Origin: a virus
Lineage: Duplodnaviria > Heunggongvirae > Uroviricota > Caudoviricetes
Length of the DNA: 4,767 bases
Strand: one strand, 5' to 3'
Virus record (IMG/VR): IMGVR_UViG_2660238346_000024
Part shown: one piece after another, positions 1-4,767 of the stretch
Numbering within the stretch: position 1 is the first letter of the stretch
How the letters are laid out: each line of letters opens with the position of its first letter
The notes under the pieces: generated by a model
Database searches by the model: none
Told to the model about the DNA's origin: nothing
The model's input: the letters and a program-made list of their open reading frames with translations, nothing else
Made by a program: the position numbers and the translations under genes

Positions 1-87
1 CCCCCGGAGTCCTCTTATCTTGCTGGGCGGTGGAAGACGTTGCCCTTTCAGGTGGCAATAATGAACTGCATGGGTAATGACCGGATC

Positions 88-111
88 GTAAGCGACTCGT
101 CAGAACCGTAT
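88..111. repeat. Left terminal inverted repeat of the IS66-family element (GTAAGCGACTCGTCAGAACCGTAT)
   Basis: Starts with GTAA. Aligns with the reverse complement of 2762..2785 (GTAACCGGCTCATTTAAACCGTCT) at about 17 of 24 positions, sharing GTAA, CG, CTC and AACCGT blocks. Aligned by eye, not computed. Confidence 0.55.
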
Positions 112-117
112 TGATAT

Positions 118-1689
118 TTACTGAGAGCTCAGATCAACTTTCCAGGGCAACAGATCGCGTACCCGGTTTGCCGGCCAGTCCTGGATATGTTCAATGACGT
201 AACGCAGCCACTTTTCTGGCTCCACATTGTTCAGACGGCATGTGCCGATCAGCGAGTACAACACCGCCGCATGTTCACCACCGCTGTCGGAACCCACGAA
301 CATCCAGTTTTTCCGGCCTACGGCCACTCCCCGTAAGGCGTTCTCTGCGATGTTGTTGTCGATTTCCACCCAGCCATTACTGCAGTACACGTTCAGTGCA
401 TCCCACTGTTTCAGCAGGTATGCGAACGCTTTTGCCGTATCTGACTGACGCGACAGTGTTTTCATCTGTTGCTGTATCCAGTCATACAGTGACTGCATCA
501 GTGGCGCGGCTCTGGCTTTTCTTGCCGCCAGACGCTGTTCTGCTGAACAGCCCCGGACCTCTGCCTCGATGGCATACAGTTCACCGATACGCTGCAGGGC
601 TTCCGTGGTGATGTAGGTGGGCGCTCTTGCATGCACATCGTGGATTTTTCTCCGGGCATGAGCCATACACGCGGCTTCCGTTATTCTGCCGGATTCGTAT
701 AACTCCCGGTAACCACCGTAAGCATCGGCCTGAAGCACACCGCTGTAACCGGCCAGGTGATTTTGTGGATGGATACCTTTCCGGTCCGGACTGTACGCGA
801 ACCAGACCGCCGGGGGCATCTGTGAACCGGCGTTACGGTCATCACGGACGTAGACCCACAGCCGGGCTGTCCGGGTTTTACCGCTGCCCGGCTCCTGGAC
901 CGGGACGGGGATATCATCAGCATGGACTTTACCGGGCATCAGCACATACTGGCGCAGGACGTCATACAGCGGCTCCAGCAGTTCAGCAACAGCACCTGTC
1001 CAGCGCCCAAGTGTGGCACGGCTCAGCTCCACTCCCTGACGACGGTATATTTCTGACTGGCGGTATAACGGCAGATGGTCTGCATATTTCCCGGTGACAA
1101 CATGGGCCAGAAGCCCCGCTCCGGTATAACTGCGTGCAATTGGTTTTGAAGGTACTGGTGCCTGCACGATATGGTCGCACCGGCAACAGGCCTGTTTCGG
1201 ACGTTGTGTTTCGATAACCTTAAAGGCGCTGCTGATAAGCTCCAGTTGCTCTGACACATCACATCCCAGAGAACTGAGTTCACCACCACAGGCAGGACAG
1301 CATTCCTCTTCCGGCCGGATAACCCGGGTTTCACGGGGAAGTGAGGCCGGTAACGGTTTACGGGCTGAAGACTGGCGCAGGGCGGATGGCAGTACCGGGT
1401 CATATTGCTCACCCAGCGTTTCCGCCATTTCTTCCTGAAGTGCGCTGATTCGCTCCTGTGCTTCCTGTATCTGCCGTTCGGTTTTTGCACGAAGTTTTTC
1501 TGAGCTTTTACCGAACTGCATACGTTGCAGTTTCGCAACCAGCGCCTTCAGCCGGTTGATTTCGGAAGCATAAGCCGCCACCCGCTGTGAGAGCAGGCGG
1601 TTGTATTAAGCCATCTGGCGGATGGTGTCCTGTTGCGTCTGCAACAGTGCCCGCAGGCGGGCGTTCTCATGAGCAAGTGAGGTGTCCAT
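118..1689 (-). pseudogene. tnpC: IS66-family transposase TnpC, interrupted by an in-frame TAA (plus-strand 1606..1608) 27 codons after the ATG at 1687..1689; the longest intact frame is 118..1581 (487 aa from a GTG)
   Basis: The 487-aa ORF has an N-terminal coiled-coil or leucine-zipper-like region, a Cys cluster (CCPACGG...CCRCDH) and a DDE-type core, typical of IS66 TnpC. Translating upstream in the same frame gives MDTSLAHENARLRALLQTQQDTIRQMA[13 protein letters not shown] and then the ORF. The ATG at 1687..1689 lies 4 nt after the tnpB stop with GAGGA just upstream, so it is the natural coupled start. The full frame is 523 codons, the normal TnpC size. Confidence 0.85.
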
Positions 1690-1693
1690 ATCC

Positions 1694-2056
1694 TCACTTT
1701 ACAACGGGATATATGCGGATTCCAGCGCGTTCCGTTCGTTTCGGGTGCTTCCAGTTGATACCTTCAAGAAGCATGGATAACTGAGCCGGAGTAAGGTGCA
1801 CCTTGCCGTCACGGGTGACTGGCCAGACGAAGCGGCCCAGCTCCAGGCGTTTGGTGAAGAGGCACAGTCCGTCACTGTCAGCCCACAACACTTTTATCTG
1901 GTCACCCCGGCGTCCGCGGAAGATGAACAGGTGTCCGGAGAACGGGTCATCCTTCAGGACGTTCTGAACTTTTGATGCCAGGCCGTTAAAGCCATTTCGC
2001 ATATCGGTGATACCTGCAACCAGCCAGATACGCGAACCTGCAGGTAGAGATATCAT
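1694..2056 (-). CDS. tnpB: IS66-family accessory protein TnpB (IS66 Orf2-like), 120 aa
   Basis: Size and position between tnpA and tnpC. The start ATG overlaps the tnpA stop by 1 nt (ATGA), indicating translational coupling. The sequence MISLPAGSRIWLVAGITDMRNGFNGLA... resembles IS66 Orf2-like proteins. This is the IS66 TnpB, not the IS200/IS605 RNA-guided TnpB. Confidence 0.88.
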   Translation of the reverse strand: MISLPAGSRIWLVAGITDMRNGFNGLASKVQNVLKDDPFSGHLFIFRGRRGDQIKVLWADSDGLCLFTKRLELGRFVWPVTRDGKVHLTPAQLSMLLEGINWKHPKRTERAGIRIYPVVK

Positions 2057-2448
2057 CAGTGGTTGCTCCCTTTTATTTCGCGGATAAGTGTCTGTAATAA
2101 CGCCGGCGTCAGTTTACCTTTAAGCCTGAGAGTTCCGGCCGGCAGAACCAGCTCACAACACAGACTGTCGGACGGTGTATTTATCTGCTCTGGTTCCTGT
2201 GCGGGGGCCGGGATTTTATTATCCGGCTCCGGCGTTAACGTCACGGGAAGCAGTGCCGGCATATTTTTTCCGGAAGGCAGCAGTCCACCTTTCCGGTATT
2301 GATGGCGCCAGTTGAAGAGCAGGTTATCGTTGATTCCGTTTTCCCGGGCGGTCTGCGCCACACAGGCTCCGGGCTGCAGTGACTGCTCCACTAAGGCGAT
2401 TTTAAACTCATAAGGGAAGTTGGGCCGCCGGGGACGTTTTTTTACCAC
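2056..2448 (-). CDS. tnpA: IS66-family accessory protein TnpA (transposase HTH_Tnp_1-like), 130 aa
   Basis: The N-terminal segment RPRRPNFPYEFKIALVEQSLQPGACVAQTARENGINDNLLFNWRHQYRKG fits the transposase-8 helix-turn-helix pattern. It is the first of the three canonical IS66 ORFs and its stop overlaps the tnpB start. Confidence 0.82.
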   Translation of the reverse strand: MVKKRPRRPNFPYEFKIALVEQSLQPGACVAQTARENGINDNLLFNWRHQYRKGGLLPSGKNMPALLPVTLTPEPDNKIPAPAQEPEQINTPSDSLCCELVLPAGTLRLKGKLTPALLQTLIREIKGSNH

Positions 2449-2732
2449 GGGGCTTCGGATATAACGGTGCTTTCAGGACGTACGACTGGTACCGTGGAAA
2501 ATTGTACGTAAAGGCAGGCATCAAGTTCCTGCTCCGACATGCCTGCGGGCAAATGCCACGAAAGACCAGCTCTCCGAAAGCGCACGAACATACTACAAAC
2601 TGTTGATTTTGGTACACCCAGGCGACGCCCGGCCACAACCCGGGGTAAATGTTCTTCAAAGTGAAGACGTAAAGCTTCAGTGATCCAGGTCCGGTGTTTC
2701 ATACGATAGTGTCCATTAAAAATGATGGACAT
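2442..2732 (-). CDS. Small helix-turn-helix protein ORF (96 aa; possible start at the internal Met MKHRTW, giving 86 aa) inside the IS upstream of tnpA; probable IS-encoded accessory or regulatory protein
   Basis: Intact ORF between the right inverted repeat and tnpA, overlapping the tnpA start by 7 nt. Contains an HTH-like segment (RVVAGRRLGVPKSTVCSMFVRFRRAG). No strong Shine-Dalgarno sequence is visible, and the family assignment is uncertain. Confidence 0.5.
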   Translation of the reverse strand: MSIIFNGHYRMKHRTWITEALRLHFEEHLPRVVAGRRLGVPKSTVCSMFVRFRRAGLSWHLPAGMSEQELDACLYVQFSTVPVVRPESTVISEAPW

Positions 2733-2761
2733 TATTTTTGTAGAGCCGGAGGAAACAGACC

Positions 2762-2785
2762 AGACGGTTTAAATGAGCCGGTTAC
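2762..2785. repeat. Right terminal inverted repeat of the IS66-family element
   Basis: The reverse complement reads GTAACCGGCTCATTTAAACCGTCT, beginning GTAA. It sits immediately next to the breakpoint in the phage I gene. Confidence 0.6.
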
Positions 2786-3329
2786 TATCCAGCGAGGAAA
2801 AGTACGTGTTCTGTCTGCCGTTATCCGTTACGCGGTAATCCGGTGTTTTTGCCTTCGGGGCCAGCATCTGTGCCACACCGCCCAGTATCATGCTGGCCCC
2901 CAGTGAAAACAGCATCGTGGTGGCAGAAAAACCACCGGCACTCAGGGCTGAACCCCATAACGCCATCGAGGCACCGGCCGTGAAGAAAGAGCCCACGATG
3001 GCTGCCGCCCCCAGCACAATCTGCAGTCCGCCCTTTCCGGCTCCGGCCAGTCGCGGCACAATTTGGATGACCGTTCCCTCACCCAGCTGTTCGTGAAGAC
3101 GGGCGTACACCGCCTCCGGTGCCGTGTCATCACCGGCAATACGTATCTGGTACCAGCCTTCGTTCATCTGACGGCGGAATCCGGGCACCTGTAACGACAG
3201 GGCGCGAATGGCTTCCGCTGCCGTGTTCACATACAGGCTGAGGCGGCGGCCAAATCGTTGTAAATCCCCGTGAAGGCAGATGCGTGCCAGTGGCGGTGAC
3301 GCCAGACAGAATGCGTTCGTCGTTGCCAT
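2769..3329 (-). CDS. I: Lambda-like tail tip assembly protein I, C-terminally truncated by IS insertion; native I sequence is 2786..3329 (181 codons), followed by 5 IS-derived codons and a stop
   Basis: The N-terminus MATTNAFCLASPPLARICLHGDLQRFGRR and the rest closely resemble lambda gpI (223 aa) up to ...QNTYFSSLD. The ORF then reads SNRLI-stop from IS sequence. Base 2786 supplies the first base of the next codon, and the IS GTAA end starts at 2785. Confidence 0.88.
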   Translation of the reverse strand: MATTNAFCLASPPLARICLHGDLQRFGRRLSLYVNTAAEAIRALSLQVPGFRRQMNEGWYQIRIAGDDTAPEAVYARLHEQLGEGTVIQIVPRLAGAGKGGLQIVLGAAAIVGSFFTAGASMALWGSALSAGGFSATTMLFSLGASMILGGVAQMLAPKAKTPDYRVTDNGRQNTYFSSLDSNRLI

Positions 3330-3970
3330 TTTTCGGAATACCTCTCCCGTTTACTCAGTTGTTCAGGCAGATGGTGAAGCAGCTCACCGTTGCCGCAGTA
3401 AATGGCGGCATGATTAGCCACCGATGCGCCGAAGCAGCACAGCAGGATATCGCCCGGCAGTGCAGAGGACAGGGGCACCCGGTAAAAGCCCGTTGCCTCC
3501 ATATTGTCCAGGTAAAGGTTCTGACCGTTGCACCACCAGTCATCCCCGCGATGAAAATCCGGCATATCAATGCCTGCCAGATGGTATGCATCCCGGAACA
3601 GCGTGTAACAGTCCGTCACCCCGTGCGCAAAGCGCCGTCCTGTCAGATGCGGCACACAGCGGAATTTGTGAATGTCACCCCGGCTGACCAGCCACCAGGG
3701 CAGTGCGCTTTTTATCTGCAGCCGCCGGTCAGCCTCGCTCAGCCAGGGCAGACCACCGGGATGACTGTGGACCAGTGCCACAATCTCCCCCTGCATCTCT
3801 GCCCGCAGCCAGTCTTCCGGTGCGATACGAAAATACGCCTCAGGCTCTGCAGAGATATTCACGCACGGCTGGTACTGGTTGCCCTCCGGCGTGCTTATCA
3901 CGAAGCCGCACGACTCCGCAGGCGCACACCGCCGGGCATGCGCCAGAATCGCTGATTCAGTCTGTGTCAT
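3227..3970 (-). CDS. K: Lambda-like tail tip assembly protein K (JAB/MPN metallopeptidase plus NlpC/P60 peptidase domains), 247 aa
   Basis: JAMM motif HSHPGGLPWLSEAD (H-x-H-x7-S-x2-D) is encoded at 3728..3769. An NlpC/P60-type catalytic Cys lies in GVTDCYTLF (codon 3608..3610), with a downstream His in NHAAIY. The 103-nt out-of-frame overlap with the start of I (3227..3329) matches the known K/I overlap in lambda. The start is 5 nt downstream of the L stop. Confidence 0.9.
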   Translation of the reverse strand: MTQTESAILAHARRCAPAESCGFVISTPEGNQYQPCVNISAEPEAYFRIAPEDWLRAEMQGEIVALVHSHPGGLPWLSEADRRLQIKSALPWWLVSRGDIHKFRCVPHLTGRRFAHGVTDCYTLFRDAYHLAGIDMPDFHRGDDWWCNGQNLYLDNMEATGFYRVPLSSALPGDILLCCFGASVANHAAIYCGNGELLHHLPEQLSKRERYSEKWQRRTHSVWRHRHWHASAFTGIYNDLAAASACM

Positions 3971-3975
3971 GGGAT

Positions 3976-4675
3976 TTACTGCGAAAGTTTATTAATGGAA
4001 AGGAAACCGCCAAAATTGCCGACATTCCTGCGCAGTTCACACCCGCGCATGCACTTGCTGCATCTGTCCTTACGGATATCCGTGGTGGGTTTATCGAACT
4101 CATCCGCCACAGCCCCGCCCGTGTAACCACACTCATCAGAGCGGTAGGTCCACATACAGGTGTTCGCCAGCATGATACGACCGGGAAACAGCGCCCCGTC
4201 CGTCTCGGTCGGTGTGGCCAGCACAAACGAGGCCGTCATGGCTGTCAGCTGCGACATCTGCTCCACCACCCAGCGGTCACTCAGCTCCTGCTCCGGGTCC
4301 GCCTCCGGATTGCCCGCAACGAAATTCACCGCATCCAGAAAACGGGCATACACCCGGCGGCGGACCACCGTGGCCCCCACCAGGCTCTGCAAATCCTCCG
4401 CCATTCCGGTGACAAGACCAAACAGATTGGACACCGTCAGCGACGGGCGGGCACTGCTGCCCTTTCCGTTCATCTCAAAGCCACTCCCCTCAATCGGGTA
4501 CGCCTGATATTGCCGCCCCTGCCAGGTCACCGGCTCCCCCTTTTTCATTCAGCTCATTACAGAAAAAATACCGCTCACCGCCCTGTACCGTCAGGTCGAT
4601 TTCCCAGAGCACCACCCGCGGTGACTGCTCTGACTTAACCGACTCGTTCAGACTTTCTTCGTGAATATCCTGCAT
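3976..4675 (-). pseudogene. L: Lambda-like tail tip protein L, disrupted by a +1 frameshift in an A5G5 homopolymer tract (plus-strand C5T5 at 4536..4545); the two pieces are ORFs 4490..4675 and 3976..4548
   Basis: The 61-aa ORF begins MQDIHEESLNE...ERYFFCNELNEKG like the lambda gpL N-terminus. The 190-aa ORF continues (MKK)GEPVTWQGRQYQAYPIEGSGFEMNGKG... through to ...NVGNFGGFLSINKLSQ. Joining 46 aa and 186 aa gives 232 aa, the lambda gpL length. The coding strand reads GAAAAAGGGGGAGCCG where the fused reading needs one base fewer. Confidence 0.85.
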
Positions 4676-4767
4676 CAGTTCACCACCTGCTCAATCGTAC
4701 AACTGAAATCACTGTACCTGGCGTTATCTGTGACGCTCCACTCCCGGCACACCACCCTCACCGTCCG
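4675..4767 (-). CDS. M: Lambda-like tail tip protein M, C-terminal fragment; the gene continues beyond the window
   Basis: The minus-strand frame translates to ...VRVVCREWSVTDNARYSDFSCTIEQVVN-stop, resembling the lambda gpM C-terminus (ending ...EQVVN). Its TGA stop overlaps the L ATG by 1 nt (TGATG), as in lambda. Only about 30 codons are present. Confidence 0.7.
   Translation of the reverse strand, partial: RTVRVVCREWSVTDNARYSDFSCTIEQVVN

Follow-up and report, generated by a model that had tools for sequence, protein, structure and literature searches.

A one-base G insertion, very probably a true mutation, splits tail gene L of a defective Escherichia coli lambdoid prophage

Tail gene L in the stretch of DNA analyzed here (4,767 nucleotides in full, hereafter the window) carries one extra G within an A5G5 homopolymer pair that interrupts its reading frame, and the same tract recurs in many assemblies whereas the intact orthologues read A5G4. 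Based on this replication across assemblies, we consider it very likely that the one-base insertion is a real, heritable mutation. The initial annotation had left the choice between a pseudogene and a homopolymer error open, and it is the recurrence of A5G5 across assemblies, with A5G4 elsewhere, that in our view decides it in favor of a true mutation.

The split gene L and its tail-tip setting

The window corresponds in its entirety to contig CCCD01002330.1 (4,767 bp; NCBI assembly GCA_000939215.1), from which it differs at only two positions, 1608 and 1709, where the window has 'a' and the contig has N. The host prophage is a defective lambdoid prophage of Escherichia coli. All of the genes lie on the minus strand in the order M', L, K, I, followed by ISCro1 and then a piece of a terminase gene. 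The order M-L-K-I(-J) of the tail-tip block agrees with that of lambda (13100-15444), with J missing from the contig because of the insertion sequence. The features on which the argument rests are as follows.

4675..4767, minus strand: gene M (distal tail protein), 3' end only, truncated where the contig stops; the TGA of M overlaps the ATG of L
3976..4675, minus strand: gene L (homologue of lambda gpL, Phage_tail_L), 700 nt; rendered a pseudogene by a +1 nt insertion
4536..4545, minus strand: A5G5 homopolymer pair, CCCCCTTTTT on the plus strand and AAAAAGGGGG on the coding strand; nucleotides 131-140 of L
4490..4675, minus strand: 5' ORF of L, 61 aa, made up of native residues 1-46 and 15 out-of-frame residues; TGA at 4492-4490
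3976..4548, minus strand: 3' part of L, open in the +1 frame; 190 aa, with 187 native residues (G46-Q232) that include the Fe-S cysteines
3227..3970, minus strand: gene K (JAB/MPN + NlpC/P60), 247 aa, intact
2786..3329, minus strand: gene I (Lambda_tail_I), native to codon 181 of about 223, then insertion sequence
88..2785, minus strand: ISCro1 (IS66 family; tnpA-tnpB-tnpC), a complete element and the first tail lesion
1-87, minus strand: terminase large-subunit gene fragment, the 87 bases beyond ISCro1

In loci L114-L119, M has 113 aa. The entire window is found in no complete E. coli genome record, the best match to the tail part being 96.4% and the insertion sequence part being matched everywhere. 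It is likewise absent from the GTDB species representatives in a scan with the G4/G5 pattern, the sole match of which was a contaminating contig of 430 bp, with the G4 allele, among the sequences of a Streptomyces assembly.

The frame of L changes at the tract, beyond which it is shifted by +1. On the coding strand the codons AAT GAG CTG AAT lead into GAA AAA GGG GGA, which continue as GCC GGT GAC CTG. The G run, read as C5 at 4536-4540 on the plus strand, is one base longer than the G4 of the orthologues, and the inserted G can be placed somewhere within that run but no more finely. The longer ORF happens to begin at an ATG that precedes the tract by two codons and directly follows an in-frame TGA. 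It is open through to the normal L stop and overlaps the 61-aa ORF at the tract over 57 nt (4548-4490). The initial annotation had put a +1 switch of frame at this A5G5 tract, and its coordinates are right, as ORFs 4675..4490 and 4548..3976 overlap at 4536-4545. Since L is not a single uninterrupted reading frame but is divided into 61-aa and 190-aa parts, it is a pseudogene member of the Phage_tail_L family. Apart from the +1 nt insertion, it contains no other stop or indel.

Without one G (or one A) of the tract, L becomes a 699-nt ORF that encodes 232 aa. The reconstructed protein aligns with lambda gpL (PDB 8iyk_L) over residues 1-232 on 1-232 without a gap (E 2.8e-126), is identical to it in the segment NEKGEPVTWQG that crosses the junction, and scores 309.8 bits against Pfam Phage_tail_L (PF05100), for which the cut-off is 25. 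That the two ORFs joined would make a gpL-like protein of 232 aa, as was read from the sequence at the outset, is fully borne out by this alignment and score. Residues 1-166 of lambda gpL form the HDI beta-sandwich domain of the last tail ring, and residues 154-232 hold a 4Fe-4S cluster bound by Cys173, Cys182, Cys205, and Cys212 (PMC10721106). In the alignment, cysteines occupy the positions of lambda C173, C182, C205, and C212, and all are present in the downstream frame of the window's L. Hence the reconstructed L is like lambda gpL in its length, in the M-L-K-I gene order, and in the four 4Fe-4S cysteines, with cluster binding predicted, while the two genes differ in that the frame of lambda L is unbroken and that of the window's L is lost after codon 46 by one extra G.

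The comparison of homopolymer length with orthologous L genes that the initial annotation had suggested identifies the run that has gained a base. When IMG/VR was scanned with a pattern that permitted G4 to G6, the same 29-nt context was recovered from 107 contigs, and A5G4 was read in all 107 of these orthologous tracts, A5G5 being confined to the window's own relatives. IMG/VR contains the 21-mer with G5 a single time, on the IMG version of a sister contig, and the 20-mer with G4 at least 120 times, so that G5 accounts for under 1% of sampled alleles. One SNP and a 1-nt gap separate the nearest intact alleles (loci L055 and L108) from the L of the window. Lambda has GGT at the codon in question (AAAAAGGTGAG) and hence no G4 run, unlike the G run of the window. 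From the A5G4 state of the orthologues together with the lambda sequence, it follows that the lesion is a G4-to-G5 insertion and that it is the G run, not the A run, that is altered. None of 5,426 complete E. coli genomes combines the window's haplotype with G5 (68-nt and 95-nt queries).

The extra G as sequencing error or mutation

The exact 190-aa product is encoded by four contigs and the exact 61-aa frameshift product by 15, which come from at least seven NCBI E. coli assemblies and two ENA metagenomes. The 61-aa product is informative on the indel because its sequence can arise only with the extra base. Its isolate sources are GCA_000936715.1, 000936775.1, 000939215.1 (two contigs), 000941535.1, 000947375.1 (two contigs), 001373195.1, and 918374325.1, and its metagenome sources are ENA ERZ28637354 and ERZ27266621, one of the two being a MEGAHIT k141 contig. 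A MEGAHIT k-mer of 141 presupposes short reads with a length of 141 nt or more, as Illumina typically yields. The same product is also present in NCBI nr as the PGAP-annotated MDA6116218.1 [Escherichia coli]. A5G5 was found in 10 of the 10 contigs that were retrieved and inspected from among the 15. An artefact should not be reproducible across independent samples, libraries, and assemblers, and A5G5 is.

The alternative is that the sequence really is A5G4 and that the fifth G stems either from a miscalled homopolymer (454, Ion Torrent, or nanopore) or from a faulty consensus where a repeat was collapsed. We judge this to be very unlikely, even though several properties of the source would accommodate it. 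The tract is a homopolymer, CCCD01002330.1 contains two N positions, and the source assembly is heavily fragmented, its contigs being numbered beyond 2300. Among the supporting assemblies, several bear consecutive ENA prefixes (CDQU-CDRO) and may share a project, a platform, or a clone. A search of the literature with the assembly and WGS accessions yielded nothing relevant to the sequencing platform. There is, moreover, a second homopolymer-length difference unique to GCA_000939215.1, a G4 in place of G5 in ISCro1 tnpA at 2449-2452, and therefore this assembly is not free of doubtful homopolymer calls. Against these points, the 15 contigs include the two metagenomes from other studies, a 2021 ENA assembly, and the PGAP-annotated NCBI isolate, and the uniform A5G4 reading of the 107 other tracts with identical 29-nt context excludes a context-specific systematic miscall. 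In addition, the G5 allele is linked to distinct flanking haplotypes, that is, it has been inherited and recombined.

The tnpA difference deserves separate comment. The one-base deletion in the G run at 2449-2452 splits tnpA into ORFs 2442-2732 and 2056-2448, the run being G4 in the window and G5 in sister contigs L002 and L003 and in E. coli EH031, and the G4 form is present in only 3 of 1,851 complete-genome records. This indel, which is assembly-specific unlike the L tract, could be an error or a rare copy of the insertion sequence. ORF 2442-2732 was considered as a separate IS21-type fragment and rejected, as it corresponds to the N-terminal half of the TnpA of ISCro1, which the window-specific deletion divides in two. 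A TAA in tnpC was similarly rejected as a true nonsense mutation, since base 1608 is N in the source record and the sister contigs have GAA. The 'a' at 1709 abolishes the tnpB stop (TAA in sister contig L003) and lengthens tnpB from 115 to 120 aa.

The closest intact L in a complete genome is that of E. coli G1/2 (L122, NZ_CP060083.1 2924232-2942325), whose 18-kb prophage has about 15 'frameshifted' genes. This cluster probably reflects homopolymer errors of long reads that were left uncorrected in a RefSeq genome listed as 'complete'. Such a density of about 15 frameshifted genes in 18 kb contrasts with the tail genes of the window, where there is one, and the reading frames of K and L are clean apart from the tract.

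Haplotypes that carry the five-G run

The G5 allele is found on several backgrounds. Loci L115 and L116 are the same as the window's L through nt 424 and differ at 25 sites from nt 425 on, which indicates that they have a recombinant 3' part of L. Locus L005 differs from the window's L by five synonymous SNPs, and the MEGAHIT contig L120 has an identity of 100% in the surroundings of the tract and of only 95.6% in H/M. Two assemblies each contain two different G5 contigs, one of the window type and one with another 3' part of L and K (L119, CCCD01000577.1; L116, CDRA01000746.1). These pairs suggest either two prophage copies per genome that share the frameshift, recombination having spread it, or redundant or mixed assemblies.

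Truncated frame-A L products on further haplotypes (P0018-P0021) led to E. coli MY504 (L123/L218; pMY504-2, NZ_AP026904.1 20058-20757), the L of which has A5G5 on a different haplotype with 25 SNPs in 700 nt. The nearest SNP upstream of the tract is 35 nt away, at nt 96, and the nearest one downstream is 8 nt away, at nt 148. This MY504-type haplotype has G4 in dozens of complete genomes and G5 in MY504 only. The record is a 237-kb linear 'plasmid' bearing a lambdoid prophage, and its L (OQH85_RS25025) has the PGAP label 'phage minor tail protein L, frameshifted' and adjoins a frameshifted tape measure gene (H). MY504 therefore shares with the window the same A5G4-to-A5G5 insertion at the same codon and damage to a second tail gene (H there, I in the window), whereas its L haplotype and the nature of its second lesion are unlike those of the window, and this difference points to an independent event. 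We propose that the change from G4 to G5 probably arose at least twice, with the reservation that the fifth G in MY504 may be an error of assembly. In a gene under relaxed selection, slipped-strand mispairing would be expected to recur at the longest G run.

A scan of JGI metagenomes with the G5 21-mer also returned 25 marine/TARA contigs (L193-L217) that share 23 bases with the region of the tract 21-mer in a conserved motif, ACCGTTTGAATGAAAAAGGGGGAGCCGGTCGCGAGGCTCCTGAGGTGCTATGAT. All 25 were rejected as L genes, the similarity being one of chance to an unrelated motif. One example of ACCGTTTGAATGAAAAAGGGGGAGCCGGTCGCGAGGCTCCTGAGGTGCTATGAT matched no Rfam family at the gathering score, and the marine motif could be an undescribed conserved RNA or gene start.

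Consequences for the tail tip and the possibility of residual expression

We now put forward a mechanism for the origin of the lesion and its effect. The one-base insertion in the run AAAAAGGGG of L converted G4 to G5, most likely when the strands slipped and mispaired in replication. A ribosome that initiates at the L start codon would depart from the native frame after Gly46 and halt 15 codons on, giving a 61-aa fragment predicted to be without most of the HDI beta-sandwich domain and without the entire iron-sulfur domain. The 4Fe-4S cysteines, conserved downstream, would remain untranslated from the L start. If only this fragment were produced, no functional tail hub protein L would be made. 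We infer slippage as the mechanism, loss of function of L as the result, and relaxed selection as the cause of the persistence of the allele.

The other lesion of the tail tip is in gene I, which ISCro1 cuts at codon 181, with the annotated I ORF extending five codons into the element, to 2769. Residues 135-223 of the gene I product form a plug in the tail lumen (PMC10721106), and part of this region is lost in the window's I. The view that the L frameshift is a second, independent tail lesion is thus upheld, gene I being cut and J being missing from the contig. Together, the frameshift in L, the truncation of I by ISCro1, and the missing J would leave the prophage unable to build a tail tip alone, and in this sense it appears to be doubly defective. 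At the ends of ISCro1, 88 and 2785, no 8-bp target duplication is found (flanks accggatc and tatccagc). The left flank, 1-87, is 100% identical to the terminase large-subunit gene in several E. coli prophages, while sister contig L002 has an unrelated AT-rich far flank beyond ISCro1 in place of the terminase piece. Because the far flank differs in L002, the sequence beyond the element cannot be read from short-read contigs, and the far flank is probably an arbitrary path through a multi-copy insertion sequence in short-read assembly or the result of an IS-mediated deletion.

A rival reading is that the G5 allele is still expressed, whether through a +1 slip of peptidyl-tRNA-Gly on GGG-GGA or in two parts, with the 61-aa product supplying the N terminus and the 190-aa product, begun at the ATG at 4548, the C terminus. 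Specifically, a +1 slip on the G run would regenerate the exact wild-type L, GGG can re-pair with GGG, the following codon, GGA, is comparatively rare, and the two frames overlap by 57 nt. The remainder of L has no further lesion in any G5 contig, and G5 persists on several backgrounds, also in two contigs of one assembly. However, the nearest intact allele is only one SNP away, so that the absence of further decay is explained by recency, and the shifted arrangement is not conserved, in-frame A5G4 being present in more than 99% of orthologues (one G5 against at least 120 G4 contigs in IMG/VR). The shift site has no stop or known stimulatory element, the frame-A stop is 15 codons downstream, and only a weak GAG precedes the ATG at 4548. 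Both of the G5 prophages with enough context have another tail lesion (the insertion sequence in I here, the frameshifted H in MY504), which fits decay. Hence we regard continued expression of the G5 allele as extremely unlikely.

The comparison with programmed +1 sites of the E. coli prfB type leads in the same direction. The L tract is like them in needing a one-base forward shift, and it has a Shine-Dalgarno-like AGGGGG and a P-site GGG able to re-pair in the +1 frame. It is unlike them in that its A-site codon is GGA, a sense codon and not a stop or starved codon, and in that the spacing is unmatched, since AGGGGG overlaps the shift codon and does not lie 3 nt before it. Programmed +1 frameshifting is recognized by a conserved out-of-frame arrangement and by a slow or stop A-site codon with a correctly spaced stimulator, and neither is found in L.

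A further reading is that the G run is a phase-variable (contingency) switch that toggles between G4 and G5 at high frequency and turns tail production on and off. The apparent repeated origin of the G4-to-G5 change, at least once each in the window family and on the MY504 haplotype, is what such a switch would give, but ordinary mutation also predicts recurrence at the longest G run among the thousands of sequenced E. coli prophage copies. Known contingency tracts are typically 7-8 bases or more, much longer than a run of five, and G5 is rare, at 1 in more than 120 IMG/VR contigs and in one complete genome for the MY504 haplotype. A contingency locus is expected to have a run of about seven bases or more with common length polymorphism, and L has a run of 4-5 G with G5 below 1%. 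Phase variation is, in our assessment, vanishingly improbable. A combined form of these ideas, in which the G4 run at codons 46-47 is a recurrent hot spot that reversibly silences tail-tip assembly and the G5 allele may leak full-length L through a slip of tRNA-Gly, we consider highly improbable; if it were true, 'defective' G5 prophages would keep a low-level or revertible tail production.

Our preferred reading therefore remains that of decay. The L lesion makes an ordinary pseudogene, most likely of slipped-strand origin, out of a well-known gene (lambda L) in a decaying lambdoid prophage; the same lesion is annotated as 'frameshifted' elsewhere, and it opens no new question. For annotation, this means that the split L is to be recorded as one frameshifted pseudogene and not divided between a hypothetical protein of 61 aa and a 'Phage_tail_L' protein of 190 aa. 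For quality control, it means that the L tract should not be 'corrected' as a homopolymer error. The same slip from G4 to G5 has probably happened more than once, and the window provides a further example of the decay of resident E. coli lambdoid prophages, in which a homopolymer indel and the insertion of an IS element are combined within one tail-tip module.
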